Part shown: one piece after another, positions 3,452 through 24,720 of the stretch
How the letters are laid out: each line of letters starts with the position of its first letter
Numbering within the stretch: the stretch's first letter is position 1
Source of the DNA: Deltaproteobacteria bacterium
Lineage (GTDB): Bacteria; Desulfobacterota; GWC2-55-46
Length of the DNA stretch: 64,000 nt
Direction: 5' to 3'
Assembly (NCBI GenBank): GCA_019912665.1
Contig: JAIOIE010000018.1
Coordinates: 751,433 to 815,432 of the forward strand
Translations under genes and position numbers: made by a program
Notes under the pieces: generated by a model
What the model was told of the DNA's origin: nothing
The model's database searches: none
Seen by the model: only the letters and a program-made list of their open reading frames with translations

Positions 3452-3529
3452 GGACCTGCCCCCCGTAAACTGTGCCACTTGTAATTAGAATGGGGTCGTA
3501 ATAAAACATTCTAAACAAGGAGGCTGGGT

Positions 3530-4632: not shown

Positions 4633-4664
4633 TTACGAATGGCATTATAGATGGGGGCAGGTCC

Positions 4665-5429: not shown

Positions 5430-7740
5430 TCTCCCTGGCTATTGTTGGATTAATCTCGATAGGGTCTTCGCCTTCAAAGAAAGGTTCCCCGTAGGTTTCA
5501 TAAGAAGCGTCATTGATGCTATCAAGAGCACCGTCAAGCATTAGATTCATTGTTGCAGCAATTTTCTCAAGTTCTTCTCTCGACCATGTATCTTTTCCGG
5601 CAAGTTTTAACATGAGTCTGGAATTTTCTACATCAAGTCCGGCCACCGTCTTTTCTTTTATATTTTTGGAAGTCTCAACCCGAGCGGTAGAAGAGGCTTC
5701 CTCATCTTCCTCGACAAAGATATTACTCAAGAGCGCAGAAACGGCGGCTGTCTCGGCAAGCTTTGCTTCGATGGTTTCCATATCAAGGGAAACAGCGGCT
5801 TTTTTCTCAGGGGCTGACGGCAAAGCGTACTTCTTTTCCGCAGATTCCTTTGGTTTTACAGTTACAGGTTCTATAGCAGCCTTATGAGCGTGGCTGTACA
5901 GGTCCTGGGCGTTGAGCCCCAATAAATTATAGATTTTACTCAATAACTTTATTTCGTTCGGGTCTATGCTTCCGTCACTCTGGGCTATACCCACCAAAAA
6001 TCTTCCAATGGTCTCGCGTTCATTTGCATCCAGAGGTTCTATCCGCTTTTTAATTCCCGTAATGCCAGGAGGCGCTGCGAGCAGACATTTGGTATAAGCT
6101 TTCAGTCTCACCTTTTCATCCATGCTCAAATGCAATAAGGATTCAAGGTGCTCTTCCAGATGTTTTTCCTCATCAACAGAGATGCTCCCATCAGCATTTG
6201 CCACCGCAGCCGACAGGTGAAGAATGCTTGCGGCAGCAAGGTACTCGGAAGTTGGCGCATTGGCGGAATCTTTCTGTACTCTAAACAGGACTGCTTTTTG
6301 TTCTGGTTTCGGCAAAGAGCTACCGAATCTTACGTCGGGTTCGATGCCTATGCCTATCTTCGAAAGTAGCTGGGCTAAAGCTACCGATTCACGCTTTGTA
6401 AATTTTTCAGTAGCAAAAGAAGGGAAAAGGCCGATAATGGTTTTTAAATCAAATATTGCGGTTTCTTGCGGTAGATTTTTATCAAGCCAGTCAAAGATGT
6501 TTTTCAACTCCTCGCTTTGATGTTTGTCTAATAGACAGTCCGGCAATAAAGCGAGCGCCTCATGCGAACTTTTTTCATCAGGATATCTTCCTATAAAGCG
6601 GCTATATGCATCCAATTCATCGACGCAAGAGTTGGCGATCTCACGCAATCTTTTAATAGGTCCGGTAACGGCTGTAACATCAGGCAGGTCGGTTTTTATT
6701 TCATATTCTTCCGCCCCAGACAATCCCGAACTCGCTGGATGATAGCCGATCTTGAGCTTTGTCTTGTTAGGTTTAAGTTTCAGTCCATCCCCAATTTCGT
6801 CTGAATAGCGAATGAGGAACAATCTCCTGAACTCTTCTTTACAACGATATGCTGGCGTCCTTAGTCTGTTTTCAGGGTCGTTTTCAACCCATGCCAGAGC
6901 CCAGTCCGCTGGCAGTGGCATGCCATCTATGGCGAGTTGCCCAAGACCAATCTTAAAACTTGTATAGTCTAATTCAATGTCTAAGTTAATAGGGTTCTTG
7001 TAAAATTTTGTTTTTAAACCTCTGGCTTGTGCAAAGCTCAGAAGCCCTGTAGCATATCTGTTAAACGAAGCATTATGGCCGTAAATTGAAAGAAGCCGGC
7101 TAATTTCGGCTGCTATAAGGTCGGCTTCTTTTCTAGCAGATTCGCTTTTTTCAAAATCAGACAGCAGGCGGCGCTCCAGGCCATAGTAATAAAGGAAGAC
7201 GTAGCCGATATTTATATCAGGATTCTTCTTGCCATTTGCAAGCCATTCAAGGTAAGCACTGCGAGATTGAGTCGTTATTTCTGAATAAGAAGGCCAATAT
7301 CTTAAATCCCGTCCCTCTTTATCAGGTGATCCTTTATCTACTGGCAAATCAGGATTGATTAGAGCCGGCTCAACACCCCATTTTGCAACGCTCTTCAACC
7401 CTGTTCCGAAATAAAGCAAACCTTCTTTTATTTTATAGCCCTTAACATCGACATACATGCCTGCCGGAGTCCATACGGAATCTGGCGAGACATCCTGTGA
7501 GAAATTAGTTGATCTTTCGGCAGGGGTATAACTCGTAGAAACTGTTATGGTAAAAGAAGGTTCGGCCTCATGCTGGCGCTCCCATATTGGGTCTTGAAGT
7601 GTATTTGATGCTTTGTGGGTTGAAGGGGCTCCGTTGTTATAGGTTGTCTTAGATTGATTCGGCTTTTTATTTCTAAGAAGGAGAGACCAAATAAGAATCC
7701 CGAATACTATCGCAACTATGACAATAAAAATAAATTCCAT
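5398..7740 (-). CDS. TerB-domain protein (SngA-like) with an N-terminal transmembrane helix
   Basis: The C-terminal region AVANADGSISVDEEKHLEEHL...GIAQSDGSIDPNEIKLLSKIYNLLGL is a TerB-like tellurite-resistance fold. The N-terminus MEFIFIVIVAIVFGILIWSLLL is hydrophobic. It is the first gene of the triad. Confidence 0.7.
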   Translation of the reverse strand: MEFIFIVIVAIVFGILIWSLLLRNKKPNQSKTTYNNGAPSTHKASNTLQDPIWERQHEAEPSFTITVSTSYTPAERSTNFSQDVSPDSVWTPAGMYVDVKGYKIKEGLLYFGTGLKSVAKWGVEPALINPDLPVDKGSPDKEGRDLRYWPSYSEITTQSRSAYLEWLANGKKNPDINIGYVFLYYYGLERRLLSDFEKSESARKEADLIAAEISRLLSIYGHNASFNRYATGLLSFAQARGLKTKFYKNPINLDIELDYTSFKIGLGQLAIDGMPLPADWALAWVENDPENRLRTPAYRCKEEFRRLFLIRYSDEIGDGLKLKPNKTKLKIGYHPASSGLSGAEEYEIKTDLPDVTAVTGPIKRLREIANSCVDELDAYSRFIGRYPDEKSSHEALALLPDCLLDKHQSEELKNIFDWLDKNLPQETAIFDLKTIIGLFPSFATEKFTKRESVALAQLLSKIGIGIEPDVRFGSSLPKPEQKAVLFRVQKDSANAPTSEYLAAASILHLSAAVANADGSISVDEEKHLEEHLESLLHLSMDEKVRLKAYTKCLLAAPPGITGIKKRIEPLDANERETIGRFLVGIAQSDGSIDPNEIKLLSKIYNLLGLNAQDLYSHAHKAAIEPVTVKPKESAEKKYALPSAPEKKAAVSLDMETIEAKLAETAAVSALLSNIFVEEDEEASSTARVETSKNIKEKTVAGLDVENSRLMLKLAGKDTWSREELEKIAATMNLMLDGALDSINDASYETYGEPFFEGEDPIEINPTIAREIADENTSKGT

Positions 7741-8100: not shown

Positions 8101-9650
8101 ATGGCACGTCAGACAAAAGACAAAAAGACCCCCAACGGCGGCAATCTCGGCTTTGAGGAAAAGCTCTGGCAGGCCGCTGACAAGATGCGCGGCCATATGG
8201 ATGCTTCGGAATACAAGCATGTAGTCCTCGGCCTCATCTTCCTTAAATACATATCAGACGCCTTCGAAGAGAAGCATCAGAAGCTTATGGAAGATAAATT
8301 TGCCGACCCTGAAGACCGCGACGAATACACCGCTGATAATATCTTCTGGGTTCCGAAGGGTGCCCGCTGGTCTTATCTGCAGGCGAACGCCAAACAACCA
8401 ACTATCGGCAAGCTCGTTGACGATGCGATGGTTGCCATTGAAAAGGAAAACTCCCAGCTTAAAGGAGTCCTCCCCAAAGACTACGCACGCCCGACCCTTG
8501 ATAAACATACCCTAGGCGAACTCATCGATTTAATCGGCACTATCGGCCTTGGCGATGCTGAGAGCCGCTCAAAAGACATACTTGGGCGTGTATATGAATA
8601 CTTCCTTGGACGCTTTGCCGCAGTTGAAGGTAAAAGTGGTGGCGAGTTTTACACTCCTCAGTCCGTCGTAAAAATACTGGTAGAGATGATAGAGCCTTAT
8701 AAGGGTCGTGTCTTTGACCCATGTTGCGGTTCGGGCGGTATGTTTGTTCAATCGGAAAAGTTCGTCGAGGCCCACGGGGGCAGGAAGGGGGATATCTCCA
8801 TCTACGGACAGGAGTCAAACCCCACGACATGGCGTCTGTGCAAGATGAATCTTGCGATAAGAGGCATTGACGGCAATATCGGGCCTCACCATGCGGACAG
8901 CTTCAGGCAGGATATCCATAAAGACCTTAAGGCGGACTTTATCCTTGCAAATCCTCCCTTTAACATAAGTGACTGGAAAGGCGAGCTCCTGATGTCAGAT
9001 GGAAATACGGCGCTCCTCCCGTGGGCAACGCGAACTTTGCCTGGGTTCAGCACTTTATCTACCATCTTTCCCCAAGTGGTGTGGCCGGTTTTGTTCTTGC
9101 GAACGGGTCCATGAGTTCAAATACAAGCGGCGAAGGCGAGATACGAAAGAACATAATCGAAGCCGACTTGGTAGATTGCATGATAGCTCTACCCGGACAG
9201 CTCTTCTATACAACGCCGATTCCTGTGTGCCTCTGGTTTGTAGCCCGTAGTAAGAAAAACGGCAAGTTCCGTGACAGGCGCGGCCAGACGCTCTTTATCG
9301 ATGCCCGAAAAATGGGCTATTTGATAGACAGAACACACAGGGAATTGTCCGATGAAGAGATTCAACGGATAGGTAAGACCTACCATGCCTGGCGAGGTGA
9401 AAAGGAAGCCGGAAAGTATGAAGATATCCCCGGCTTTTGCAAAAGCGCCACAATCGAGGAGATACATAGTCACGGTCACGTCCTCACGCCAGGCAGATAC
9501 GTCGGAGCCGAAGAGGTAGAGGATGACGGCGAGCCGTTTGAAGAGAAGATGAAGCGCCTTACCGCAAAGCTGAGCGCGCAGTTTAAGGAATCGGAGGGGC
9601 TGGAAAAGATTATAAAGGCGAACCTGAAGAGACTGGGGTATGGCGGATAA
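8101..9650 (+). pseudogene. hsdM: Type I R-M methyltransferase subunit HsdM, with a -1 frameshift near 8985-9025
   Basis: NPPFNISDW is in frame 1 up to GELL. The canonical continuation [26 protein letters not shown] is in frame 0. Two overlapping ORFs (8101-9114 and 9021-9650) together make one HsdM. Confidence 0.8.
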
Positions 9651-11292: not shown

Positions 11293-12519
11293 ATGCAAGA
11301 TAAAAGCCCGATGACCCATTTAGAAAATATCTGTGAGATTATCATGGGGCAATCTCCAAAGGGAGAAACATATAATACTATAGGCAACGGGACACCTCTT
11401 TTGAATGGTCCAACAGAGTTCGGAGAACATCATCCCAAGCCTGTTTTATATACTACCTCACCTACCAGGCTATGTAAAAAAGGTGACCTGCTTTTCTGCG
11501 TTCGCGGTTCGACGACAGGTCGTATGAATTGGGCGGATGCTGAATATTGTATAGGGCGCGGTGTAGGGGCTTTCCGAGCCAAGAGCGATGAAATCGATAC
11601 TCGATTTATTTATTATACTTTGGTATGTGAATTGCCAAGGCTCCTGTCTCGATGCGCTGGCTCAGTTTTTCCTAATTTATCCCGCTCTGATTTCGAGACT
11701 TTTGATGTCGTGTGGCCTGATAGGAACATACGATCAGCCATCGCCCATATCCTCGGTGCGCTGGATGACAAGATAGAGCTTAACAGGCGAATGAACGAGA
11801 TGCTGGAGGCAATGGCTCGGGCAATCTTCAAGTCCTGGTTCGTGGACTTCGAGCCAATCCCCGGCTTCGGCCCTCACAAAGAATGGCAGGACTCCCCAAT
11901 CGGCAGGATTCCAAAAGGGTGGGATATTGCCACGCTCGGCGACTTCTCCTCATTGAATCCTGAGGTGTGGTCGAAGGAGACGCGCCCGGATGTAATCAAT
12001 TATGTCGATCTCTCGAATACGAAATGGGGCCGAATTGAAACAGTCACAATATATGCGAAAGGAGAAGCACCGAGCCGAGCCCAACGTGTATTGCGAGCAC
12101 AAGACACCATCGTCGGTACCGTGCGCCCCGGTAACGGCTCGTATGCTTTCATTTTAGAAGAAGGATTGACCGGAAGCACCGGGTTCGCAGTACTGAGACC
12201 CCTAAAAGCCGAGTATGCTGAGATTGTATATCTCACCGCCACAGCTGCCGACAATATCGAAAGGCTTGCGCACTTGGCGGACGGTGCAGCCTATCCGGCG
12301 GTGCGGCCTGATGTCGTTGTTGCAACGCAAATAGTTAAGCCAGTCGATAAAGTACTGAGGGCATTCTCTCACATTGTAGCACCATTGCTTGCCAAGATGT
12401 TTGTCAATGAACGAGAATCCCGTACCCTCGGCGCTATCCGCGACGCACTGTTGCCCAAACTCCTATTGGGCGAGATAAGAGTTAAGAATGGGGAGAAGTT
12501 TATAGTGGAGCGGACGTGA
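11293..12519 (+). CDS. hsdS: Type I R-M specificity subunit HsdS (two target-recognition domains)
   Basis: Residues LPKGWDIATLGDF are present. The conserved C-terminal coiled-coil tail is AIRDALLPKLLLGEIRV. Confidence 0.85.
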   Translation: MQDKSPMTHLENICEIIMGQSPKGETYNTIGNGTPLLNGPTEFGEHHPKPVLYTTSPTRLCKKGDLLFCVRGSTTGRMNWADAEYCIGRGVGAFRAKSDEIDTRFIYYTLVCELPRLLSRCAGSVFPNLSRSDFETFDVVWPDRNIRSAIAHILGALDDKIELNRRMNEMLEAMARAIFKSWFVDFEPIPGFGPHKEWQDSPIGRIPKGWDIATLGDFSSLNPEVWSKETRPDVINYVDLSNTKWGRIETVTIYAKGEAPSRAQRVLRAQDTIVGTVRPGNGSYAFILEEGLTGSTGFAVLRPLKAEYAEIVYLTATAADNIERLAHLADGAAYPAVRPDVVVATQIVKPVDKVLRAFSHIVAPLLAKMFVNERESRTLGAIRDALLPKLLLGEIRVKNGEKFIVERT

Positions 12520-13064
12520 TATTAGAATCTGCACCTTGGAAAGATGAGTTGCTTAAAATCGCTTTTCGTTTAGAAAAACGAAAACAGCAGAGAAGGTGGC
12601 TTGAAACTTCATTTGCAAAGCTGGAAATGGAAGTCTTTATTGCAGCTTACTGTATAAGGAAGCTTTTTGAGGCTGCAAAGACTTCCAGTAGTACCACTGC
12701 ATACCAGTTCAATGTGAAGGCATATCGTTTTATCGGTACGAATATAACAAAAATCAACTGGCATGAATTTGACGAGCATTATGACCTTAGAAAGCCAAAG
12801 ATCTTCAGGAAAGACGCCTTGTTTATCTGTAACCAGCTTGTCCACAGTTATGTATTTGCACCGGACCTTAAACGAACTGGAGGATTAAGGGGGATTTTCT
12901 TCTGCTCTGATCGGGAGCGGCACAGTTGGCTATACCTGCTTGCTATTGACGAATTGATACGATATCTGAAGAAAGTAGGCCGAGATTATCCTAACTACAG
13001 TTCATCATGCTTCGACCCAAAAAGGCGTGATTATGTCATCACCCATCAAGAGATGCTTAAATGA
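12516..13064 (+). CDS. Hypothetical protein (182 aa); its GTG start overlaps the hsdS stop (GTGA)
   Basis: Long ORF coupled to hsdS. No recognisable motif. Confidence 0.45.
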   Translation: MILESAPWKDELLKIAFRLEKRKQQRRWLETSFAKLEMEVFIAAYCIRKLFEAAKTSSSTTAYQFNVKAYRFIGTNITKINWHEFDEHYDLRKPKIFRKDALFICNQLVHSYVFAPDLKRTGGLRGIFFCSDRERHSWLYLLAIDELIRYLKKVGRDYPNYSSSCFDPKRRDYVITHQEMLK

Positions 13065-13065
13065 A

Positions 13066-13197
13066 ATGAAAGATAAACTCACAGAATCCATCATCGAAGT
13101 CGCCCTCGCCGCCATCAGCGATGCCCTGTTGCCAAAGCTCCTGTCGGGTGAGATAAGAGTTAAGTATGCAGAGAAGTTTGTGGAGGCTGTATCATGA
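13066..13197 (+). other. Duplicated hsdS 3' tail fragment (43-codon mini-ORF MKDKLTESIIEVALAAISDALLPKLLSGEIRVKYAEKFVEAVS)
   Basis: Near-identical at protein level to the real HsdS C-terminus. Its stop overlaps the next gene's ATG (ATGA). Confidence 0.8.
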
Positions 13198-14384
13198 TTC
13201 CCAAAACTTTTGATGCCATCTCAAAGTCTGACATAGAGGCACTTGTCGAAAATCAGGTGAGAGAAGGACGTACTATCGAGTACAAACAGGTTCTTCTTGG
13301 TAATTCAGACGAGGAGAAACGGGAGTTTCTATCCGATATCTCATCTTTCGCAAACGCGGGCGGAGGTGATTTGTTATATGGCATTTCGGCAACGGATGGC
13401 ATCCCACAGGATGCTTTAGGCCTGGAAAGCAATCTCGATGCTGAATTGCTTCGTTTGGAGAACCTAATCCGAGACAGTCTTGACCCTCGTGTGCATGGAT
13501 TGCGAATGAGAGCGATTGATGGATTCGCAAAAGGTCCTGTCCTGCTCATCCGCATTCCAAGGAGCTGGGCAGGCCCACACATGGTCACATTTAAGAACCT
13601 GTCGCGCTTCTTTACACGAAATAGTGCAGGGAAGCATCAAATGGATGTATTGGAGATAAGATCCGCCTGTTTGCTTGCAGATGCCTTGCCTGAAAAGATG
13701 AGACGCTTTCGTGACGAACGGCTGGGGAGGATAATCGCAAGCGCGACGCCCGTTCGCATGTTTGAGGGTGCAAAACTTGTGCTCCACATTTTGCCAGTTG
13801 CTGCTTTTACGTCGGACGCGAGCATTGAAGTGGCTGTCTTAAAGGCACGCTCTATGAGCAGTCTACGACCTATTGGAGCTTCAGGGTGGAATGACGGGTA
13901 CAATCTGGACGGCTTTCTTACCTATAGCGGCCCGTATGATAGCGCTGGATCAAGGGCATATTCGTTACTATTCCGAAAAGGGCAAATTGAGGCTGTTTTT
14001 GCGGATTTAGTAAGAGAGCGCGATGATCGGAGGTTTATTCCGAGCGTAGCCTATGAAGAATATATTATTCAAGGGGTCTTAGGTTATTTAGGCGTTTTGA
14101 AATCGTTAGAGATTCCGAGCCCGCTGGTGCTCTTTGTCTGCATGACAGGGGTGGCAAATGTGCATATGGGTGTTGACACCTTTTATTTTTCACATGGCGG
14201 CAGCCCCATAGACCGCGACACGCTGGTTCTGCCTGACATCCTTGTTGATGATTACGAATCCATAAATGATAAAAATGCGGTAGCCGGCGTTCTTCGACCG
14301 ATTTTTGACGCCGTTTGGAATGCATGCGGTTTTGAGCGCTCTTTCAATTTTGACGATAAAGGAAATTGGAAACCACGTAGATAA
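13194..14384 (+). CDS. AlbA_2 / Schlafen-like putative DNA-binding (divergent AAA) domain protein
   Basis: N-terminal EYKQVLL...ISSFANAGGGDLLYGI signature. This family is commonly embedded in R-M loci. Confidence 0.6.
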   Translation: MIPKTFDAISKSDIEALVENQVREGRTIEYKQVLLGNSDEEKREFLSDISSFANAGGGDLLYGISATDGIPQDALGLESNLDAELLRLENLIRDSLDPRVHGLRMRAIDGFAKGPVLLIRIPRSWAGPHMVTFKNLSRFFTRNSAGKHQMDVLEIRSACLLADALPEKMRRFRDERLGRIIASATPVRMFEGAKLVLHILPVAAFTSDASIEVAVLKARSMSSLRPIGASGWNDGYNLDGFLTYSGPYDSAGSRAYSLLFRKGQIEAVFADLVRERDDRRFIPSVAYEEYIIQGVLGYLGVLKSLEIPSPLVLFVCMTGVANVHMGVDTFYFSHGGSPIDRDTLVLPDILVDDYESINDKNAVAGVLRPIFDAVWNACGFERSFNFDDKGNWKPRR

Positions 14385-14493: not shown

Positions 14494-16413
14494 ATGGCAT
14501 TCACGGAGACACTGACAAGCTTAGCAATGCTAAAGGTCAACATTGATCAGGGTAAGGACTACCTCGAATATCTGCGACCTTTTATTCTGCAGATACTTAT
14601 TGACCAGAAGCCCGACCCCGTGACTGATGTGGTTGTCCGTGATCATCTTCGCACACAATTTGGCCTTGAGATTCCGGAGCGTGTTGCTCAGATTCTATTG
14701 AAGCGCATCTCTCGGTCGTATCTACTAAAGCGTGAAACTGGGGTATATCGAATCACGGGTACTTTACCAAACCCTGGGATTACTGCAAAGAAAACTGAAG
14801 CAGATCGACACATCAAGGCAGTGGTCTCAAGTCTGATAGAGTTCTCAAAGAACACCGCTAAGCCGATTACAACCGAAGATGAGGCGGTTACAGCCATTTG
14901 CGCATTCCTGGCAGAGTTCAATATCCCTTGTCTTCGTGCATACTTGAGAGGTACGGCCATTCCAACTGTCGAGGGCAAACACCATAGCCACATTGTGCTG
15001 GTCAGTGAGTATGTCGTACATCTGCAACGCACCAACCCTGAACGTTTTGAAAGCTTCCTCGTGGTGGTTCAAGGGCACATGCTGGCAAACGCCTTGCTTT
15101 GCCCAGACCTCCAAAACGCCCCAAAGTCATACAAGGGCGTCACTTTTTATTTAGATACCCCATTGTTGATACGACGGCTTGGGCTTGAGGGTAATCCAAA
15201 GCAGGCGGCGGCAGTAGAGCTAATCCGACTGCTGAAGAATCTTGATGCGGCCGTTGCTACGTTCGCACATTCGCGTGATGAACTGGATCGTGTGATCAGG
15301 GGCGCAGCCGATCATATAGAAGCACCGAGCGGCCGCGGGGCCATTGTTATGGAAGCAAGACGCAAAGGCACGACCAAATCTGACCTACTGCTCTTGGCAG
15401 GACAAATCGATGAGAAGCTCGCCGACTCTGGAATTGAGGTGAAGTGCACACCGAAATATATTGCAAACTTTCAGATCGATGAAACAGCTTTCGCTAAGGT
15501 ACTTGAGGATGAGGTGTCATACTTTAACTCGCGTGCCATGGATTATGATATCAACTCTGTGCGAAGTATCTATGCACTTAGGGTAAATTCGTCCCCCACG
15601 ATTGTGGAAAAGTGCGGAGCAGTTCTCGTCAGCAGTAATGAAGGTTTTGCACGGGCAGCATATGAGTACGGACAGCGGCATGAAGAGTCGCGCGAGGTGT
15701 CAAGCGTGATCACCGACTTCAGCCTGGCAAACATGGCTTGGTTGAAAGCTCCGATGGGTGCGCCGTCTCTACCGACCGCTGAGATACTCGCATTCTCTTA
15801 TGCAGCACTTCAGCCCTCAAAGGAGTTGCTTGACAAGTTTTTGGATGAGATGAATAAGTTGGAGAAACAAGGCAAGATTACTGCACGCGATCATCAGCTC
15901 CTCAGGAGTAGCACACTTGCACAAGAGGAGATGATGAGCCTGACGCTGGGAGAAGAGACAGCGCTTACCGAGAAGACGGTCACCGAGACACTGCGGCGCG
16001 TTTCAGAAGAAATCAAGAAGGAGGAAAGCGAGAAGCTTACAGCCGAGCAAATTGCTCATCGCAAAACTCAAGTTGAGCTTGATGCCGAACGTGTGACGAA
16101 AAAGCAAATTCAGGAACGGTTTTTCTGGCGATGTCTGAAGAATGCACAATACTGCGCGTGGGGGATTTCAGGGTTTATCTCTATTCTCATAATTGGTGGC
16201 ATCATTGCCGGATTCGGGCTCAAAGCGGCAAATCCTGCTCTTGGCTGGGTGCTTCTCGTAGGTTTGTCTGCACTGGCAATTGCGACAATAGCGAATCTTA
16301 TTTTCGGTGCTACTGTCCAGCAATTGCACAACTACATCGAAGAACGATGTCTTAAATTCTTTTTAAAACGCGTGTTTAAATCAAGCGGGATTGACATCGA
16401 GAATAGACTATGA
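14494..16413 (+). CDS. Hypothetical 639-aa protein with a C-terminal coiled coil and two predicted transmembrane helices
   Basis: Long ORF. The C-terminus GISGFISILIIGGIIAGFGL...WVLLVGLSALAIATIANLIFG is hydrophobic. No recognisable catalytic motif. Confidence 0.55.
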   Translation: MAFTETLTSLAMLKVNIDQGKDYLEYLRPFILQILIDQKPDPVTDVVVRDHLRTQFGLEIPERVAQILLKRISRSYLLKRETGVYRITGTLPNPGITAKKTEADRHIKAVVSSLIEFSKNTAKPITTEDEAVTAICAFLAEFNIPCLRAYLRGTAIPTVEGKHHSHIVLVSEYVVHLQRTNPERFESFLVVVQGHMLANALLCPDLQNAPKSYKGVTFYLDTPLLIRRLGLEGNPKQAAAVELIRLLKNLDAAVATFAHSRDELDRVIRGAADHIEAPSGRGAIVMEARRKGTTKSDLLLLAGQIDEKLADSGIEVKCTPKYIANFQIDETAFAKVLEDEVSYFNSRAMDYDINSVRSIYALRVNSSPTIVEKCGAVLVSSNEGFARAAYEYGQRHEESREVSSVITDFSLANMAWLKAPMGAPSLPTAEILAFSYAALQPSKELLDKFLDEMNKLEKQGKITARDHQLLRSSTLAQEEMMSLTLGEETALTEKTVTETLRRVSEEIKKEESEKLTAEQIAHRKTQVELDAERVTKKQIQERFFWRCLKNAQYCAWGISGFISILIIGGIIAGFGLKAANPALGWVLLVGLSALAIATIANLIFGATVQQLHNYIEERCLKFFLKRVFKSSGIDIENRL

Positions 16414-16472
16414 CCCCTTCAAGAATCACTGAATCTACCGCTGAAGAGGCTCTTTACGGTTGGCGAGATTGA
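16410..16472 (+). other. Duplicated hsdR 5' head fragment (MTPSRITESTAEEALYGWRD*), overlapping the orf639 stop (ATGA)
   Basis: Matches the real HsdR N-terminus [19 protein letters not shown] at 17334. Confidence 0.75.
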
Positions 16473-17125
16473 TTATAAAAAAATCTAATCGCTATGACAC
16501 CTCTGGCTTAACAGAGGCACAGTTTGAGCCTGGTTCGGGTCGGCGTGTGCTCAAGAATTTGCTCGGAATTAAGAGCAAGCGGGAGATGGACCGCATCGAA
16601 GCACTTGTTCAGCTTCCTGTTCTGGAGGAACTATCCAGCATCTATGATAAAGACCATAGGTTCACCGCCGCTGATATATGCAGGATTCACGAGATCTGGC
16701 TTGGGAGAATATATGAGTGGGCTGGACAATACAGGAGAGTAAATGTCAGCAAGGGAGACTTCCCTTTCGCAGCCGCCGGACATATACCAAGTTTAATGTC
16801 AGAGTTTGAAAAGAAGCTTCTTAAGAAATACACTCCTTGTCTTTACTCAGCACATAAAGACATAGTCAAGGCAATTGCTGTTGTCCATACAGAACTGGTT
16901 TTGATTCACCCCTTTCGCGAAGGGAACGGCAGGGTTGCCCGTATACTAAGTGCCCTGATGGCGTTACAGGCAGGATTGCCGTCACTGGATTTTACTGGAA
17001 TTAAGGGGAAGAGAAGACAAGAATACTTTGCGGCGGTAAGGGCTGGTATGGATAATAATTATGAGCCTATGGAAAAGATTTTTAACGCCGTGATTTCCCG
17101 GACACTACGGATTCAGAAAGGATAG
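16460..17125 (+). CDS. Fic/Doc family protein; start codon uncertain (TTG at 16460 or a downstream ATG)
   Basis: Fic motif HPFREGNGRVAR is present. Confidence 0.8.
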   Translation: MARLIIKKSNRYDTSGLTEAQFEPGSGRRVLKNLLGIKSKREMDRIEALVQLPVLEELSSIYDKDHRFTAADICRIHEIWLGRIYEWAGQYRRVNVSKGDFPFAAAGHIPSLMSEFEKKLLKKYTPCLYSAHKDIVKAIAVVHTELVLIHPFREGNGRVARILSALMALQAGLPSLDFTGIKGKRRQEYFAAVRAGMDNNYEPMEKIFNAVISRTLRIQKG

Positions 17126-17333: not shown

Positions 17334-20300
17334 ATGACCTTATCAAGAATCACCGAATCAACCACTGAAGAAGCTACCCTCGACTGGTTCAATGAACTGG
17401 GTTACTCTATCCTCAGCGGCCCTGATATTGCCCCTGGTGAACCGCTCGCCGAAAGGTCGGGTTATGGCGATGTCGTTTTAGAGGGCCGGCTCCGTTCTGC
17501 TTTATCCAGAATAAATGCCGCCATTCCTTCAGAAGCTATAGAAGATGCCATCCGTAAGCTCCTGCGAGCTGTCCATGAGTCCCCCCTTCTTTACATCAAT
17601 AATCACCGCTTCCATAAGGTCCTTACCGATGGGATCGATATTGAATACAAAAATTCTGAAGGACGGATTGTTGGGGACAAAGTCTGGCTCATTGATTTCA
17701 ATAATCCTGGTAACAACGACTGGCTGGCGGTCAATCAGTTTACGGTTGTCGAGGGACAAAGCAACAGACGCCCTGATGTAGTGGTTTTTATCAACGGGCT
17801 CCCTTTAGGGGTTATTGAGCTAAAAAACCCGGCAGACGAAAACGCCACGATAAAGAATGCTTTTAATCAGCTTCAGACTTATAAAAACGAAATCCCCTCC
17901 CTTTTTTCCTATAACGAAATTCTTATAGTCTCAGACGGTCTTGAGGCGAGGACTGGCACCCTAACTGCCGATTGGGAATGGTTCATGCCGTGGCGGACTA
18001 TTGAGGGTGAGGATTTGGCGCCCAAAGGGATGCCGGAGCTTGAGGTGTTAATCAAGGGGATATTCGACAAGTCGAGATTCCTGGATATCCTCAGATACTT
18101 TGTTGTTTTTGAGACGGACGGGGCGCTTGTCATAAAGAAGATGGCCGCCTACCATCAGTTCCATGCAGTAAACAGGGCTGTAGACTGCACATTGACTGCG
18201 GCTTCTCCGAGGGGAGACAGAAGGGTTGGAGTAGTCTGGCACACGCAGGGAAGCGGCAAAAGCCTGACCATGACCTTTTATGCTGGAAAGATTATTCAGC
18301 GCCATGAGATGGAAAACCCCACCCTTATTGTCCTTACTGACAGGAACGACCTTGACGACCAGCTGTTCGGCACTTTTTCAAGGTGTCTGAGCCTCTTGAG
18401 GCAGACCCCTGTCCAATCCCGGAGCAGAGAGCACCTTAAAGAACTTTTGAGTGTCGCTTCGGGCGGGGTTGTTTTTACCACTATACAGAAGTTTCTCCCC
18501 GAAAAGGGGCTGGATTACCTAAGACTTTCGGATAGAAGCAATATAATCGTCATCGCTGACGAGGCCCACAGGAGCCAATACGATTTCATAGATGGTTTTG
18601 CAAGGCACATGAGGGACGCCGTGCCCAAGGCGTCCTTTATCGGCTTTACCGGCACACCCATTGAAGCTGACGACAGAAACACGCCCGCCGTCTTCGGCAA
18701 CTATATAAGCATATATGACATCCAGCGGGCCGTTGAGGACGGAGCCACTGTGCGTATCTACTATGAGGCGCGCCTTGCGAAGCTTGAGCTGAAGGCAGAG
18801 GAGCTCCCCAGGATAGACCCTGAGTTTGAGGAAATAACGGAGGGCGAGGAAGAAGCGACTAAAGAGAAACTCAAGCGGAAATGGGCGCAGTTTGAGGCGA
18901 TGGTGGGGACTGAAAAGCGCATCGGTCTTGTGGCAGAGGATATTGTTGAGCACTTTGAAAGCAGACTTGAAGCCATGGACGGCAAGGGGATGGTAGTCTG
19001 CATGAGCCGCAGGATCTGCATTGACTTGTACAACGCTATTGTGAAACTGCGGCCAGAGTGGCACAGCGAGGACGACGACAGAGGGTTTTTGAAAATTGTA
19101 ATGACCGGGTCCGCAAGCGACCCTGCGGACTGGCAAAGCCATATCAGAAATAAGGCGCGCAGGGAATCCATGGCCAAGAACTTTAAAAAACCGGACAACC
19201 CCTTTAAGTTAGTTATAGTCCGGGACATGTGGCTTACCGGGTTTGACGCCCCCTGCCTCCATACAATGTACATAGATAAACCGATGCGCGGACATGGACT
19301 CATGCAAGCGATAGCCCGTGTGAACAGGGTATTTAAGGATAAGCCTGGCGGGCTTGCTGTGGATTATCTTGGCATAGCGGATGAACTCAAAAAGGCCCTT
19401 TCGAATTACACTGAAAAAGACCGCGATATTACCGGCATCCCGCAGGAAGAGGCTGTCGCTGTGATGCTGGAGAAATTTGAGATAGTCTCGGCGATATTGC
19501 ATGGTTTTGACTATTCAGGGTTTCTCAAAGGCGCTCCATCTGAGAAACTGACAACCGTAAAGGAAGCGCTGGAGCATATCCTTGCTCTCGAAGACGGAAA
19601 AAATAGGTTTATGCAGGCGGTTACGGAGCTTTCAAGGGCGTTTGCGCTTTCAGTGCCACATGAAAAAGCGATGGCTATTAGGAATGACGTCGGGTTTTTC
19701 CAAGCGTTAAGGGGAGCCTTTGCCAAGAATACCGTGACCGACGGCAAAAGCCCGGAGATGCTTGATTCGGCAATACGGCAGATCGTCTCAAAGGCTGTGG
19801 CATCCGGAGAGGTAATCGACATCTTCTCTTCAGCGGGCCTCAAGAGGCCGGACATCTCGATTCTGTCGGATGAGTTCCTGGAAGAGGTCCGCAATATGCC
19901 GCAGCGTAACCTCGCCTTAGAACTTTTAAAAAAGCTGTTGAACGATGAGATAAAGGCACGCTCCAAAAAGAACCTGGTGCAGGCAAGATCTTTTGCGGAA
20001 ATGCTTGAGGAAACCGTAAGGAGGTATCAGAACCGTGCCATCGAGGCCGCCCAGGTCATAACCGAGCTTATCGATCTTGCAAAAGACATGAGGGAAGCCC
20101 ACAAGCGGGGTGAGAAGCTTAATCTTACCGAAGAAGAGGCCGCCTTCTACGATGCACTTGAGACCAACGACAGCGCGGTCCATGTCCTCGGCGACGAAAA
20201 GCTGAAAATAATAGCCAGAGAGCTGGTCGAGACTGTAAAAAGAAATGCGACGATAGACTGGACGGTCAAGGAAAGCGTTAAGGCTAAGCTTAGGACTATG

Positions 20301-20408
20301 GTAAAGCGTATACTCCGGAAATACGGCTATCCACCAGATATGCAGGAGAAGGCGACAAAAACCGTTTTGGAGCAGGCGGAGCTTCTTGGCGCTAACTGGG
20401 CAGCGTAA
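17334..20408 (+). CDS. hsdR: Type I restriction enzyme R subunit HsdR
   Basis: N-terminal HsdR_N region. Helicase motifs GSGKS and DEAH-equivalent ADEAHRSQ are present. Length 1024 aa. Confidence 0.9.
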
Positions 20409-20493: not shown

Positions 20494-20670
20494 ATGACCT
20501 TCTGTCCATGCGGAAGTGTTAAGAAGTTTAAGAAATGCTGTATGTCTGGACAGGCCAGCAGGTCTGGGCTCCCTGGGATGCAGGAAATCACAGATGAAAT
20601 TAAGAAGGAATTCGTGACCACCCTGCAGGCTCTCTCGCCGAGACTCAGGTGGTTGCCAATCGCTTCATAG
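20494..20670 (+). CDS. Small SEC-C-motif (CPCGS..KKFKKCC) zinc-binding protein, 58 aa
   Basis: Metal-binding motif CPCGSVKKFKKCC at the N-terminus. Short, so coding status is uncertain. Confidence 0.35.
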   Translation: MTFCPCGSVKKFKKCCMSGQASRSGLPGMQEITDEIKKEFVTTLQALSPRLRWLPIAS

Positions 20671-20707
20671 ACGCGTAGGAACAGATCTGACTTGTTGAAT
20701 TCTCGGA

Positions 20708-22525
20708 TTGTCACCTGAGCAGATGCTAAAGTTTCTGGGTGTTTTTTCTTATAGGAGGCTGTTGATGGCTATTGATATAAATTGGTTTTTGATGACGGAT
20801 ATAAAAAAACGTTCTTTAATCAAGGCATCCTGGACTCCGTTATGCGCGTATGATGAACATACAATAAATGGAGAACCTGGCCATATTGGATATGAGAGAG
20901 AATATTTTGGATCGGTTGGTCTTATTTTCCCTATTGATCAGGCACGAGAAGCATTCTTGCTTCAATGGGATGAAGTTATCCCAAAATGGGGGCATAAGCC
21001 TTGCGTTGAAAACGGGAAATATTTTCCTGCGGATGTTTATTCTTTTTGCAATGGCTTGCTAGGTACCTATCCTGTATTACAACAGTCATTTGATAGCGGT
21101 GAGCCTTGTGTATGGCATCTGTCGCAAGACATCATTTTAGGGCTTGGATTATTACGTGAAAGAGATGGCTGGGTTCGTCCCCAAGAAGACTATTTGGAAG
21201 TTGCTCGGCTTAAGCGCATTCAGGAAGGAAAGCCTGTGCGCTTTGAAATACGAACGGAGCATCTCCGCGATTTTCTTTGCGCCAGGGAATCCGGGATATT
21301 AATTGTCACATATCATTTGAGAGAAATAATCGTGGACTCTGCACCAGATTTTGGGTGGAAGAACGGAATCGCAAATGAGACTGGAGAAAATTATCATTGG
21401 AATGGACATATTCATCCTATTCACGAAGGTGGATTCCCATTCGGAGAAAAGATAGCAGTCTTCCACATGGGTAGAACTAATATCGATCCTAATGACGATA
21501 TACCGACCTTTGGCATGCCTGGAGAAGATGAATACAAGTCGAGCTCTTGGGTAAGGACGCCTACTGGTCGGCAGCTTTTTAGCATTACGGGTGAAATGTG
21601 GAGGACCGAATGGATTCCTCCATTAGAGACTAGTCCTCGGGTCAGAGGTGATAAGGAAGAGTCACACATATCGTTTCAGATCGACAGTGCTGGAACCACT
21701 TTAGCTGGTAAGAAGCTTTATGACCATAGAGGATGGATCTGGTTCAAGCCATCAATAATTCGCACTCTGCTGGAAAAGCGAAACGGGGTTCTCGAATGGT
21801 ATACCGATGAGACTGGTTGTGTTGGCCCTGCTCCTAATATGGGAGTACATTTTGGTGTCAACGAGCTTGGCTTAATTAATGTATTGGCAAAGGATATAGC
21901 CTCATTACCAACTATCTATCAGCGCGTATGGGTGGCACACAATATACCTCCTGACGGCCGAGTTTCAAAAGAATTACTAAAGTCGCAGATGGAGGCGGAA
22001 CCAGCCGATACAAAAGCTCCGGAAGTCATACTAAAAAAGGCGATTGAACATCTTCAGAAAGCGTCCACTTATTTTCTTGGTCGGCCCATGCTCAAAGAGC
22101 ATCACATTTCAACGAAAATCGATCGTGAAATTCATAGATTCCATGGACAGAGCATGGAAGGCTTGTTTTTTCTTTGCAAAGAGTTGACAAGGTTAATAGT
22201 AGAGCGAATAGATGTCGATTTATTAAAGGAGCTTGACCCCGCTGCTGACAAAAAATTAGGCTCTATTAAGCGGCTGGAATATTTCCTTAATTCTAAAGGT
22301 TTTGAAGGACGTAAAATCATGGCAGCACTGGCTGGTGTTTACGACTTACGTATAGGGGACTCTCATTTGCCTTCTACAGAGATTACGGAATCTTTGAAAC
22401 TGCTGGGCATTGGAGACACTGGTGATTACCAGAAAATGGCGAAACAAATAATTCTTTCCGTTGCGTATTCTATAGGGACAATAGGAGATATCATAATAAA
22501 GTCTAGCAAAGACAATAGGGCTTAG
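20708..22525 (+). CDS. Hypothetical 605-aa protein at the island edge, no recognisable domains
   Basis: Long ORF with lower GC than the core. The start may be the internal ATG at codon 20. Confidence 0.5.
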   Translation: MSPEQMLKFLGVFSYRRLLMAIDINWFLMTDIKKRSLIKASWTPLCAYDEHTINGEPGHIGYEREYFGSVGLIFPIDQAREAFLLQWDEVIPKWGHKPCVENGKYFPADVYSFCNGLLGTYPVLQQSFDSGEPCVWHLSQDIILGLGLLRERDGWVRPQEDYLEVARLKRIQEGKPVRFEIRTEHLRDFLCARESGILIVTYHLREIIVDSAPDFGWKNGIANETGENYHWNGHIHPIHEGGFPFGEKIAVFHMGRTNIDPNDDIPTFGMPGEDEYKSSSWVRTPTGRQLFSITGEMWRTEWIPPLETSPRVRGDKEESHISFQIDSAGTTLAGKKLYDHRGWIWFKPSIIRTLLEKRNGVLEWYTDETGCVGPAPNMGVHFGVNELGLINVLAKDIASLPTIYQRVWVAHNIPPDGRVSKELLKSQMEAEPADTKAPEVILKKAIEHLQKASTYFLGRPMLKEHHISTKIDREIHRFHGQSMEGLFFLCKELTRLIVERIDVDLLKELDPAADKKLGSIKRLEYFLNSKGFEGRKIMAALAGVYDLRIGDSHLPSTEITESLKLLGIGDTGDYQKMAKQIILSVAYSIGTIGDIIIKSSKDNRA

Positions 22526-22723
22526 TTGTCTAAAGCCTTATTAGCACCAGGGGATGAATGGACTTCAATTTAATTCTGAGTAGCTATTAGCGTAACCAAA
22601 ACGTAACCGAAATCGTCAAAAAAGGCCTTAAACGGCGGAAAATACGTAAAGGACGGAAGGCCGAAAAACATTTATTTTTCAACTATGTGCAGGTAAAAGG
22701 CCCGGTTATGATTTTTGATTTAA

Positions 22724-22772
22724 CGCGCTCATAACCCGAAGGTCGCAGGTTCAAATCCTGTCCCCGCTACCA
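22724..22772 (+). other. 3' half of a tRNA-fMet gene (anticodon loop CTCATAA to CCA); att-like remnant, not an intact tRNA
   Basis: CGCGCTCATAACCCGAAGGTCGCAGGTTCAAATCCTGTCCCCGCTACCA resembles the initiator tRNA-Met anticodon/T-arm/acceptor 3' strand. No D-arm or 5' acceptor is present upstream. Confidence 0.7.
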
Positions 22773-22779
22773 AATTAAA

Positions 22780-22816
22780 CCCCTGAAATCTAAACGGATT
22801 TCAGGGGTTTTTCTTT
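22780..22816 (+). terminator. Rho-independent terminator hairpin CCCCTGAAATC-taaac-GGATTTCAGGGG followed by a T-run
   Basis: Perfect 11-12 bp stem followed by TTTTTCTTT. Confidence 0.7.
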
Positions 22817-22937
22817 GAAAACTGATTTTCTCTGAATCAACTTGGTTCTGTTTTTAATCTTTAAATAACTAATATAATTTCAAATCCATTTTAACTAAAC
22901 CTATTCAGATAGGTTTAGTATTTACAAAAAATTATTA

Positions 22938-24509
22938 TTGAGTTATAACAGGTTGCCTTTAAATTTTAATTTCTACTTGGAGACGGTGATGAAAAAGAAC
23001 ACGCTATGTCGATTTTTAAAGAAAGCAAGTTTAATCCTTTCCGCGCCTTTCATAGCATTGGGATTTATGGCAACGATGATGGCCGGGTGTGGCGGCGGTG
23101 GCTCTTCAAGCAGTGGCGCAGCTACCGCAACGGGCCTCTTGGTAGATAGCGCCGTTCAAGGGGTAAGCTATGTGTCCGGCGGCCAGTCCGGCGTGACCGG
23201 GGCTGACGGCTCTTTTACATATGAGGTCGGGAACACGATTACATTCTCAATAGGCAATATCGTACTCGGCAATGTAGGTATAGAGCCAAAGGGGATCATG
23301 ACGCCGCTCGATCTGGCGGGAGCAGTAGACGCGACAGACACGGCAGTAGTGAACCTGGCCATTTTTCTTATGACCCTGGACAGCGACCAGGACCCCTCGA
23401 ACGGGATAGAGATCGAACCGGACGTAAGGACCGCCGCCGCCTCCCCATCTGTCACGCAGATAGATTTTTCTACTGCTAACGTGGGTGATCTTACATCCTT
23501 ACTAGGCGTGCTCACATCAAGTCCCGTTGTAAGCGCTGAGGATGCTTTGTCCCATGTGTCTGGCAGCATACTTAATCTCTATGCGGGATCGTACACTGGC
23601 ACATTTGCCGGCGATGATTCAGGGACCTGGAGCGCGACCATCGACTCGGATGGAGTAATAACCGGGACCTTTACCGGAACTAGCAGCGGCACCCTCAGCG
23701 GCAGTATCGACACGAGCGGAAGCATGTTCTTCTCTACCAGCGGGAACACTTCCGAAGGCACTGTATTCAGCGGCACCATTGACATTTCTACCGGTTCGGC
23801 GGCGGGCACCTGGAGTGATGATGAGGACTCCGGGACGTATGCGGGCAATAAAATATCCTCGATTATAGGCTCTTGGTACAGCGGCACGGGTCCTGACGAC
23901 CTGGTCGTACTCACCTTTTTTGAAGACGGGACCTACATGTTCTCCCAAGACGGGAATGCCGCGCAGCATGGAGATGAAGGCCAGGATGGAATGGAGCGCG
24001 GCACGTATGCCTGGGATTCCAGCACCGGAGCCTTCACGGCATCTCCGGCTGTAGACACAAGCGGTGACTGGGGGCTCTCACATCCTCAGGGCACCGTGAC
24101 CGTACAGATCAACGGCAATGTAATGACAATGACCGATTCCGTAGAGGGCATATATACCGCAGTTCGCGTTACAAACGGCAGCGGCTCGATTGTCGGCAGC
24201 TGGTATAATGGCAGCACCTCTCAGACCAATAATCTTGTCATACTGACTTTTTTTGAGGACGGCACCTACATGTTTTCCCAGGACGGGAATGCCGCGCAGC
24301 ACGGAGATGGGGGGCAGGATGGAATGGAACGCGGTACTTATGCCTGGGATTCCGGCACAGGGGCCTTCACGGCGACCCCGGCTGTAGACACAAGCGGTGA
24401 ATGGGGGCTTTCACACCCCGATGGCAGCGTGACGGTGCAGGTCAACGGCAATAATATGACTATGACCGATTCAGGAGGCGGCATTACCGCAACGCGTATC
24501 CTGCCATAG
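22938..24509 (+). CDS. Probable secreted lipoprotein, G/S/T-rich, with two near-identical ~105-aa tandem repeats
   Basis: Signal peptide with lipobox-like MMAGC. The repeats SWY.G....L.ILTFFEDGTYMFSQDGNAAQHGD.GQDGMERGTYAWDS.TGAFTA.PAVDTSG.WGLSHP cover ~23,880-24,500. Confidence 0.6.
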   Translation: MSYNRLPLNFNFYLETVMKKNTLCRFLKKASLILSAPFIALGFMATMMAGCGGGGSSSSGAATATGLLVDSAVQGVSYVSGGQSGVTGADGSFTYEVGNTITFSIGNIVLGNVGIEPKGIMTPLDLAGAVDATDTAVVNLAIFLMTLDSDQDPSNGIEIEPDVRTAAASPSVTQIDFSTANVGDLTSLLGVLTSSPVVSAEDALSHVSGSILNLYAGSYTGTFAGDDSGTWSATIDSDGVITGTFTGTSSGTLSGSIDTSGSMFFSTSGNTSEGTVFSGTIDISTGSAAGTWSDDEDSGTYAGNKISSIIGSWYSGTGPDDLVVLTFFEDGTYMFSQDGNAAQHGDEGQDGMERGTYAWDSSTGAFTASPAVDTSGDWGLSHPQGTVTVQINGNVMTMTDSVEGIYTAVRVTNGSGSIVGSWYNGSTSQTNNLVILTFFEDGTYMFSQDGNAAQHGDGGQDGMERGTYAWDSGTGAFTATPAVDTSGEWGLSHPDGSVTVQVNGNNMTMTDSGGGITATRILP

Positions 24510-24543
24510 CGGTTCAGGTAAATTAAGTTAAGCGGGTTCATAT

Positions 24544-24636
24544 CTGGCACAATAACCAGAGCTCGAGGTTCAACTCCTCTCTCCGCTACCAAATTAAAGC
24601 CCCCTGAACCTTTTGGTCCAGGGGGCTTTTGTAATT
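24544..24636 (+). repeat. Degenerate second copy of the tRNA 3' fragment plus terminator hairpin (direct repeat of 22724-22816)
   Basis: AGGTTCAACTCCTCTCTCCGCTACCAAATTAAAGCCCCCTGAACC...GGTCCAGGGGGCTTTT is alignable to the first copy, including the CCGCTACCAAATTAAA junction. Confidence 0.6.
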
Positions 24637-24720
24637 TCAGGGAGTTATTACAAATGGATGTCGCTGCCTCTATTCTGATTTGTTAGGCTGAGTTCCGCTA
24701 CTCCCTGCCTTCGGCCTTAC

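Follow-up and report, generated by a model that had tools for sequence, protein, structure and literature searches.

A large unannotated protein family of defence islands and plasmids with a putative HEPN-like C-terminal domain: a candidate single-protein immune system

Introduction

Anti-phage defence by a single HEPN protein has experimental precedents in ApeA and DARNA. ApeA is a tRNA anticodon nuclease that acts by abortive infection, while DARNA, or PD-T7-3, is a HEPN tRNase activated by single-stranded DNA. The anticodon nucleases PrrC and RloC, which possess an N-terminal ABC-type ATPase, carry putative HEPN effectors and are found beside or inside restriction-modification (R-M) loci, sometimes along with DOC/Fic proteins. 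Two further immune proteins, Upx and the STAND NTPase Avs3, sense the phage terminase. The published description of HEPN domains has the catalytic motif span the end of a helix and the loop after it, with inserts ahead of that helix (PMC3710099).

We used sequence, structure and gene-neighbourhood analysis to investigate a large ORF in a stretch of 64,000 nucleotides of a deltaproteobacterial contig, which is the whole of the DNA analysed and is termed the window in the following. We present evidence that this ORF encodes a member of a widespread protein family of defence islands, and we tentatively propose that such proteins might function as stand-alone immune receptors with a HEPN-like effector.

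Results and discussion

A foreign gene at the edge of a defence island

The preliminary description of this DNA had reported a 605-aa ORF of low GC, lying as island-edge cargo distal to an integration scar. The maximal ORF in the list indeed spans 605 codons at 20708-22525 on the forward strand, and these coordinates stand; the length of the product, on the other hand, has to be revised. Both the homologues and P0001, an NCBI protein of 586 aa that is 100% identical to the window protein, begin at ATG 20765, and the TTG at 20708 is therefore almost certainly wrong as a start codon, with ATG 20765 being the likelier start of a 586-aa product (CDS 20765..22525, forward strand, stop codon included). 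A Shine-Dalgarno sequence, AGGAGG, can be read at 20753..20758 (forward strand), 6 bases 5' of this probable true start codon. Full-length, colinear alignment to more than 200 homologues shows that the gene is genuine and intact, and hence that it is not the frameshifted fusion of unrelated fragments that had earlier been considered.

The GC content of the gene is 0.428 (0.378 at third codon positions, GC3), whereas the upstream hsdR (17334-20408) reaches 0.503 (GC3 0.58) and the core-genome part of the window at 25-64 kb 0.573. Downstream of the gene, sequence inspection reveals a degenerate tRNA 3' fragment, with an exact tRNA-like 3' end at 22748-22772, followed by a hairpin terminator at 22777-22810; together (22699..22810, forward strand) they mark the island boundary. 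ARAGORN detects no intact tRNA in the whole window. These observations agree with the earlier account of both the base composition and the location, and support the view that the 586-aa gene is cargo of foreign composition, situated where an island ends at the tRNA fragment. The defence genes of the window include a type I R-M system with an embedded YhcG, a Schlafen/AlbA_2 protein and a Fic protein (PDC-S04), and BrxC/D, TerB and a helicase are also encoded; the hsdM gene of the R-M system is frameshifted.

Between hsdR and the large gene lies a 58-codon ORF (20494..20670, forward strand) that begins with the SEC-C zinc motif CPCGSVKKFKKCC. The presence of this motif, noted at the outset, is upheld by Pfam (PF02810 at residues 4-17, E=3e-5, with 24.2 bits where the gathering score is 20.4), and NCBI annotates the ORF as a SEC-C domain protein. 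Its stop codon at 20670 and the ATG at 20765 are separated by 94 bases on the same strand, and one might accordingly think of a two-gene system or of a single frameshifted gene. However, no SEC-C ORF adjoins a family member at any of 66 homologue loci, the N-termini of the homologues correspond to ATG 20765, and every frame of the interval that separates the two ORFs contains stop codons. Moreover, the small ORF is an orphan: a search of 5.8 billion proteins recovers only itself, no relative of the remainder of its 58 aa outside the motif is found in the protein database, and an exact look-up yields no gene on record. No Shine-Dalgarno sequence can be read ahead of it, and its GC (0.503) is that of the hsdR block, unlike that of the 586-aa gene. 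A functional link between the two ORFs is thus not borne out, and their union as a single unit is extremely improbable and effectively refuted. Of the ideas put forward for the small ORF, that of a remnant is the better one on account of its orphan status, the lack of a Shine-Dalgarno sequence, the 66 negative loci and the hsdR-like GC; as judged from its sequence, it is probably an incidental, truncated remnant of the neighbouring hsdR block that lies outside the 586-aa unit.

A large family that has escaped annotation

The family of the 586-aa protein is large, widespread and unannotated. It comprises 1,773 clusters at 50% identity with E<=1e-3, 421 of them with E<=1e-30, from many phyla of bacteria and from archaea (haloarchaea and Methanoperedens). 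Related loci were searched with a 12-sequence alignment, conservation was counted over 213 sequences and gene neighbourhoods were compared over 66 loci. As surmised earlier, the protein lacks any recognisable domain: searches of Pfam, NCBIfam, PHROGs and PADLOC return no match to it, and hence none to a well-known metabolic family. Likewise, Pfam matches none of 42 homologues at E<=5, and no HEPN family matches 10 divergent members at E<=10, thereby bringing the members scanned to 52. PADLOC-DB v2.0.0 recovers no family with the window protein at E<=0.1 or with a further homologue, L011, at E<=0.001; eight length variants and the 10 divergent members are without a match in the family libraries, and profile searches of PDB sequences with the full-length protein or its C-terminal domain return noise alone (E>=0.2). 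Neither the 586-aa protein nor the scanned homologues show an ATPase domain or motif, and no paper was found in the literature under the RefSeq accessions of the homologues. Readings of motifs in the N-terminal region as PD-(D/E)xK or aspartic-protease ('DTG') sites were discarded, as the residues in question are not conserved across the family.

The family is carried by 16 plasmids, five of them conjugative, including a clinical NDM plasmid of Acinetobacter. In this plasmid an HTH regulator is encoded upstream of the family gene, a feature not shared by the other loci.

Gene neighbourhoods and mobility

The suggestion that homologues might cluster with R-M or other defence genes is supported by their neighbourhoods. 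In a DISARM locus the family gene is embedded between drmMI and drmA (drmD-drmMI-X-drmA, where X is the family gene, with a 4-base overlap), and in a Gabija locus it directly follows gajA-gajB. Other homologues neighbour CBASS; TIR_2, SIR2_2 and a 2,015-aa STAND-like protein; a DpnII/MboI restriction endonuclease with Fic and toxin-antitoxin modules; GmrSD, MmeI and HEPN_Swt1; AAA_13 and DUF4062; or SIR2_2 and DUF2726. A Nostoc plasmid combines the gene with DUF499/DUF1156 and a ThiF/multiubiquitin module, and a haloarchaeal plasmid with DUF262 and PIN/DUF433. When 10 homologues picked only by record length were each scanned within 8 kb, defence genes were clearly present in six, borderline in one and absent in three (a raw count from a small sample), with the last three contexts displaying housekeeping or IS genes only.

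Despite these associations, all-against-all clustering of the neighbours at the 66 loci reveals no conserved partner gene, and neither a shared small upstream HTH protein nor an antitoxin-like small ORF is found among them. Type I R-M was considered as an obligate partner and rejected, since BLAST with the Hsd, Fic, Schlafen and YhcG proteins of the window recovers them in only 0-2 other loci; SIR2_2, which is encoded downstream in only two related loci, was set aside as well. These data are best explained if the 586-aa gene constitutes a unit by itself, autonomous and horizontally mobile, within defence islands, plasmids and integrative elements.

Two other interpretations of these contexts have to be weighed. 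In the first, the protein would be a PrrC-like back-up guard that does not sense infection autonomously: a neighbouring complex (R-M, DISARM or Gabija) would keep it inactive, and inhibition of this complex by a phage would set it free. The linkage of HEPN proteins to R-M systems with DOC/Fic toxins nearby is a described theme, the family gene directly follows hsdR in the window, and its position between drmMI and drmA, immediately 3' of gajB, and next to DpnII/MboI, GmrSD and MmeI elsewhere would be in keeping with such a role. However, no partner family is constant over the 66 loci, some copies stand alone among housekeeping genes (one lies between panD and folate genes), and others adjoin not restriction systems but CBASS, TIR or SIR2. 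In the window itself hsdM is disrupted, and the difference in GC3 between the gene and hsdR argues for separate acquisition; a guard of this type is hence improbable.

The second interpretation holds that the gene is mobile cargo unrelated to immunity, such as an addiction toxin, a factor for maintenance or exclusion of the element, or an anti-defence protein, and that its presence in islands merely reflects shared integration hotspots. Its carriage on plasmids, the integrases, resolvases and many transposases close to some copies and the three contexts lacking defence genes could all be accommodated in this way. Against it stand the lack of any conserved antitoxin-like small ORF next to the gene and its location inside defence operons, which goes beyond mere proximity. 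Furthermore, searches of 50,697 phage genomes and of the IMG/VR viral contigs detect no relative, and this disfavours anti-defence in particular; of the two kinds of cargo proposed at the outset, it is thus defence, with homologues amid defence genes, that gains ground. We consider a role outside immunity to be hardly likely, and a defence role of the 586-aa family to be moderately supported.

Predicted structure and conserved residues

The AlphaFold (AF2) model of the full-length protein (pLDDT 90.7) predicts two domains. The N-terminal domain (residues 1-395; 20765..21949, forward strand) is beta-rich and a putative sensor with a novel predicted fold; the invariant D169 (codon 21269-21271) lies in it, as does R186. 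The C-terminal domain (residues 396-586; 21950..22522, forward strand), which was also modelled alone (pLDDT 90.5), is all-helical and a putative HEPN-like effector. Foldseek returns no match with E<1e-3 when PDB and BFVD are queried with the full model, or PDB with the C-terminal domain, and the modelled fold is thus new to PDB and BFVD. The HEPN protein 2hsb ranks sixth among the matches to the C-terminal domain (E=0.64, TM about 0.3) and scores no better than vinculin-tail bundles. The sole high-probability match to the full-length model is Avs3 (8dgc; probability 0.98, E=0.04, 212 columns, query-normalised TM 0.20), which was assigned to the N-terminal domain by exclusion, as it is absent with the C-terminal domain as query.

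Five residues, D169, E420, R458, R529 and H534, are invariant in all 213 sequences, and four of these lie in the helical domain, where K472 and D/E473 are conserved in addition; the acidic residue at 473 is kept in 197 of 213 sequences (92%), in the helix 464-477, with the pattern [DE]-x2-[RK]. R529 and H534 form an Rx4H motif (R529-I-G-D-S-H534; 22349..22366, forward strand) that is present in 213/213 sequences and extends to the haloarchaeal and Nostoc branches at about 20-24% identity, taking the form R-[KTN]-E-[ED]-S-H in branches about 20% identical. In the model the helix 515-531 ends with R529 and is followed by a loop bearing H534, while helical inserts (484-510) precede that helix.

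The conserved Rx4-6H of HEPN domains is thus present, and at the level of predicted secondary structure the placement of the motif and the pattern of inserts fit the published HEPN description. Other typical traits are less clear-cut: the residue after the arginine, typically a polar N, D or H, is in the main branch usually L, H or Q (commonest over the 213 sequences are L in 75, H in 46 and Q in 32), with K, T or N in the haloarchaeal branch, and in place of the acidic Ex3[KR] of helix 2 the family has an acidic E-x2-R. No similarity to described HEPN families is detected by Pfam in the 52 members or by profile search of PDB sequences. We accordingly regard the C-terminal domain as a putative, model-based HEPN-like effector.

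That neither sequence nor fold matches HEPN leads to a less likely, though possible, alternative, namely an immunity protein with a different chemistry. D169, R186, N366 and E403 are conserved across the superfamily and lie outside the helical bundle, and R529/H534 could therefore serve, together with them, a new inter-domain active site, be it of another nuclease, a phosphodiesterase or an NAD- or nucleotide-processing enzyme, or else a ligand pocket. In such a case the effector could even be the N-terminal domain, to which the weak, high-probability local match to Avs3 draws attention. Nevertheless, most of the strictly invariant residues cluster in the helical domain, no other catalytic signature was recognised, and the Rx4H spacing fits HEPN, as do the position of the motif, where a helix passes into a loop, and the acidic residue in an earlier helix.

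A tentative functional model

Taken together, these features lead us to favour, as a plausible yet still tentative proposal, a stand-alone anti-phage protein in which a novel beta-rich sensor is combined with a HEPN-like RNase effector. We infer a defence function, an RNase activity, a sensor role for the N-terminal domain and dimerisation, which might be connected as follows. The N-terminal domain of about 395 aa would sense an infection cue and the C-terminal domain of about 190 aa would act as a metal-independent, HEPN-like RNase, with the invariant R529-x4-H534 serving as the catalytic centre, aided by the acidic D/E473 from a preceding helix. Other HEPN nucleases suggest by analogy a probable dimer that would act on RNA of the host or the phage, and the outcome would be immunity of the abortive-infection type. 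A more far-reaching version, which we put forward as a speculative and rather doubtful idea, is that the family constitutes a new, broad class of single-protein immune receptors across bacteria, haloarchaea and Methanoperedens, in which a new beta-rich sensor fold, remotely akin to part of Avs3, directly recognises a conserved phage component and switches on either a new, highly diverged branch of HEPN-like RNases or a new inter-domain R/H/D/E active site.

If true, a widespread system of one gene, with 1,773 clusters in both prokaryotic domains and on plasmids, would be added to the known repertoire of prokaryotic immunity. Current annotation and defence-finder libraries miss it wholly, and it would bring a sensor of unknown fold together with an effector that sequence methods fail to recognise because of its divergence. 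It would also provide a concrete case of defence genes nested in other defence operons (DISARM, type I R-M and Gabija), of relevance to the way in which immunity is built up in layers. Given a compact protein, a confident model and a clear residue pair for mutation, the hypothesis is cheap to test.

Comparison with known systems

A close parallel is ApeA, which is likewise encoded by a single gene in defence islands, is of nearly equal size (about 583 aa in Ec2ApeA) and carries, after N-terminal domains that are not catalytic, a diverged HEPN domain at the C-terminus, which contains insertions and the catalytic Rx4H. In contrast to the 586-aa protein with its beta-rich N-terminal domain, ApeA is alpha-helical nearly throughout. 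ApeA-specific models exist in Pfam or PADLOC, and no model of any kind was matched by Pfam in the members scanned or by PADLOC in the window protein and L011.

DARNA resembles the 586-aa protein as a stand-alone two-domain protein that joins an R-x4-H HEPN RNase to a sensor domain of otherwise unknown function; however, its HEPN domain is N-terminal, in reversed order, its sensor is helical and Pds5-like, and the 586-aa protein has no PADLOC match. The resemblance to PrrC and RloC lies in their genomic setting by R-M genes and Fic, as in the window, whereas the 586-aa protein has a beta-rich domain in place of their ATPase and its family is not tied to any R-M type.

The remaining similarities concern architecture and sensing. 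Cap4 structures do not occur among the Foldseek matches listed, and the 586-aa protein lacks the STAND NTPase of Avs3, whose likeness is confined to the single match of the N-terminal domain. Upx, found in many phyla, is a single polypeptide in which a large unannotated sensor is joined to a small nuclease-type effector at the C-terminus, without an NTPase. It is about twice as long and cuts DNA by means of a PD-(D/E)xK effector; its likeness to the 586-aa protein is one of design logic.

The large gene and the mini-ORF ahead of it

The maximal 605-codon open reading frame 3' of hsdR (17334-20408) spans 20708-22525 (+). The preliminary description of this ORF and of the 58-codon mini-ORF ahead of it (20494-20670, +) holds for the coordinates of both and for the SEC-C motif, which scores above threshold, but not for the start codon of the larger ORF. 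ATG 20765, with a perfect AGGAGG six bases 5' of it, is the first codon of an identical NCBI protein (P0001) from a Candidatus Methylomirabilis MAG and of all homologues, yielding 586 aa; the start of the maximal ORF is almost certainly mis-set. The ORF is undamaged and colinear with its homologues. The description of it as low in GC and devoid of recognisable domains is borne out: its GC content is 0.428 (GC3 0.378), compared with hsdR at 0.503 (GC3 0.58) and the core genome at 0.573, and no Pfam, NCBIfam, PHROGs or PADLOC model matches the protein. The family-library models are likewise unmatched by 42 homologues, 8 length variants and 10 very divergent members, leaving the family invisible to current annotation.

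The motif CPCGSVKKFKKCC in the mini-ORF matches Pfam SEC-C with 24.2 bits (curated threshold 20.4, E=3e-5), but a link of the mini-ORF to the large protein is not supported. Among 5.8 billion proteins it has no relatives except itself, a self-match labelled 'SEC-C domain-containing protein' by NCBI, and neither a SEC-C ORF nor any other conserved small ORF is present 5' of the large gene at 66 homologue loci. As it also lacks a Shine-Dalgarno sequence, is divided from the large gene by stop codons in all three frames and has the GC of hsdR, we conclude that the 586-aa protein and the mini-ORF are not partners. The mini-ORF is an incidental orphan and, in the simplest reading, a truncated remnant located where the restriction-modification (R-M) block ends on the 3' side, in line with the earlier suspicion of a remnant.

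The defence island

The DNA from position 1 to ~23 kb is low in GC and makes up a defence island. Its first part (656-7740) resembles a second defence module, now disrupted, comprising a DEAD-box helicase (656-2869), a BrxC/D-type ATPase gene in two pieces (2866-3417 and 4629-5429) broken by an IS3-family (rve) transposase (3943-4632), and a TerB_N/TerB/TerB_C protein (5398-7740). The hsdM gene of the type I R-M system (8101-9650) is split between two ORFs that overlap and are read in different frames (8101-9114 and 9021-9650, covering N6_Mtase model positions 2-147 and 159-311, respectively); the methylase is therefore frameshifted, which points to a pseudogene or else to a mistake in the assembly. 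Four cargo genes lie within this system, namely a YhcG/DUF1016 nuclease, a Schlafen/AlbA_2 protein (13194-14384), a 639-aa protein (14494-16413) predicted to have transmembrane helices at its C-terminus and Fic (16460-17125; PADLOC PDC-S04, E=5e-74). The 639-aa protein has no significant family match (the best being a weak one to PADLOC LeoBC, E=0.0024) and is another uncharacterised defence-island gene.

On its 3' side the large gene is followed first by the 3' end of a tRNA, a fragment at 22748-22772, and then by a terminator at 22777-22810; a search of the whole window with ARAGORN gave no intact tRNA. A second tRNA 3'-end-like fragment with 3 mismatches lies at 24567-24591 (regions concerned, 22690-22820 and 24510-24640), and AAATTAAA and a strong hairpin terminator are found after each of the two. 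Together they enclose a repeat-rich, lipoprotein-like ORF of 523 aa (22938-24509). The two fragments look like tandem att scars left by successive integrations at one tRNA gene.

Family and predicted structure

An exhaustive profile search recovered 1,773 clusters at 50% identity, 421 of them with E<=1e-30 and nearly all of 575-600 aa. Bacterial matches come from many lineages, including Proteobacteria, Bacteroidota, Myxococcota, Planctomycetota, Chloroflexota, Acidobacteriota, Omnitrophota and candidate division WWE3, and archaeal ones from Methanoperedens and a distinct haloarchaeal branch. The AlphaFold2 model built from a 42-sequence alignment is confident (pLDDT 90.7, pTM 0.80), with a beta-rich N-terminal domain (~1-395) and an all-helical C-terminal domain (~396-586). 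Foldseek found no match with E<1e-3 in PDB or BFVD; the sole high-probability local match, to Avs3 (8dgc; probability 0.98, E=0.04, 212 columns), is lost when the C-terminal domain alone is the query and is hence located in the N-terminal domain.

Genomic context

All-against-all clustering of neighbours at the 66 loci revealed no conserved partner gene, and one copy is solitary between panD and folate-biosynthesis genes; the family gene thus stands as an autonomous unit of one gene. Very often it lies beside defence or mobile genes, and these are of widely varied types, which supports the earlier idea of a cargo defence gene. In Brachymonas and Aromatoleum the family gene (X) is nested in class 1 DISARM as drmD-drmMI-X-(257 aa)-drmA (L011 5643-11773; L042 5622-11788), where a 4-base overlap of its start with the drmMI stop implies co-transcription with DISARM. 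At four Bacteroidales loci it follows Gabija (gajA-gajB-X). Here a conserved 446-aa protein without a PADLOC match lies 3-6 bases 3' of it (L023/L025/L026/L031, ~11764-13104), the whole block being kept at 87-100% identity, and may be a lineage-specific extra component. Other settings include type III CBASS (Burkholderia gladioli); TIR_2 directly 5' with SIR2_2 and a 2,015-aa STAND-like protein 3' (L076); DpnII/MboI REase, Fic and TA modules (L075); GmrSD, MmeI and HEPN_Swt1 (L083); AAA_13, DUF4062 and a resolvase (Omnitrophota, L081); SIR2_2 and DUF2726 (Halomonas); DUF499/DUF1156 with a ThiF/multiubiquitin module (Nostoc plasmid); and DUF262 with PIN/DUF433 (Halobaculum plasmid). Some copies could possibly act as PrrC-like guards of neighbouring restriction systems, but such a role cannot be general since contexts are variable and at times solitary.

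The commonest Pfam domains among 218 immediate neighbours are ResIII, SNF2, integrases, DDE transposases, TIR_2, Fic, PLDc_2, Eco57I/MmeI, Type ISP and AAA_21, mixed with housekeeping genes at island borders. In a small sample of ten homologues, picked solely by length of sequence record and without background control, clear defence genes lie within 8 kb of six, with one borderline and three having none. Sixteen plasmids carry the family. On one, the 30-kb clinical NDM plasmid pNDM-GJ01 of Acinetobacter towneri, a small HTH regulator precedes the family member (L072, 3181-4929). No member occurs in 50,697 phage genomes or, as far as a pattern-based scan can show, in 2.9 million viral contigs, which favours host-side defence over the anti-defence role offered as an option in the preliminary description.

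Conserved residues and comparison with HEPN systems

Across 213 full-length members only D169, E420, R458, R529 and H534 are strictly invariant, all but D169 belonging to the helical domain; conservation is almost as strict at K472 (97%) and D/E473 (92%). R529-x4-H534 (RIGDSH, 22349-22366) is retained as R-[KTN]-E-[ED]-S-H in two branches of only ~20-24% identity, Nostoc and haloarchaeal. In the full-length model and in one of the C-terminal domain alone, helix 515-531, with short helical inserts before it and a long final helix after it, ends at R529, and H534 lies in the next loop. At the level of secondary structure this placement and the inserts agree with the account of HEPN domains in PMC3710099. 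Judging from conservation, R529 and H534 might form a single inter-domain site with the superfamily-wide D169, R186, N366 and E403. HEPN membership is putative and not established: no sequence or profile link to HEPN was found, the best HEPN structure match (2hsb) ranks only sixth (E=0.64), main-branch members often have a hydrophobic residue right after R529, and the spacing in the acidic motif is x2, against the x3 typical of HEPN. Directly 5' of the Halomonas faecis homologue (L001) is a 188-aa protein (1757-2323) with the classical HEPN-type RNxxxH motif 'RIRNQLAH' and no precomputed Pfam match.

The 586-aa gene, whose product has a novel fold, is a good candidate for a single-gene defence system not described before. 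Given the conserved R-x4-H, its helix/loop placement, the linkage of HEPN domains to R-M systems and the ApeA and DARNA precedents, we propose that one protein would combine a sensor domain with a HEPN-like RNase effector, acting through abortive infection. At least 16 HEPN clades are linked to R-M systems, and some of these neighbourhoods also encode DOC/Fic toxins (PMC3710099), as does the R-M system of the window with its Fic. Experiments have established defence by one HEPN protein that also carries a separate sensing domain: ApeA (~583 aa, its diverged HEPN domain being C-terminal) and DARNA/PD-T7-3 both cut tRNA anticodon loops. By analogy, the family would follow this known logic of sensor plus HEPN-like effector.
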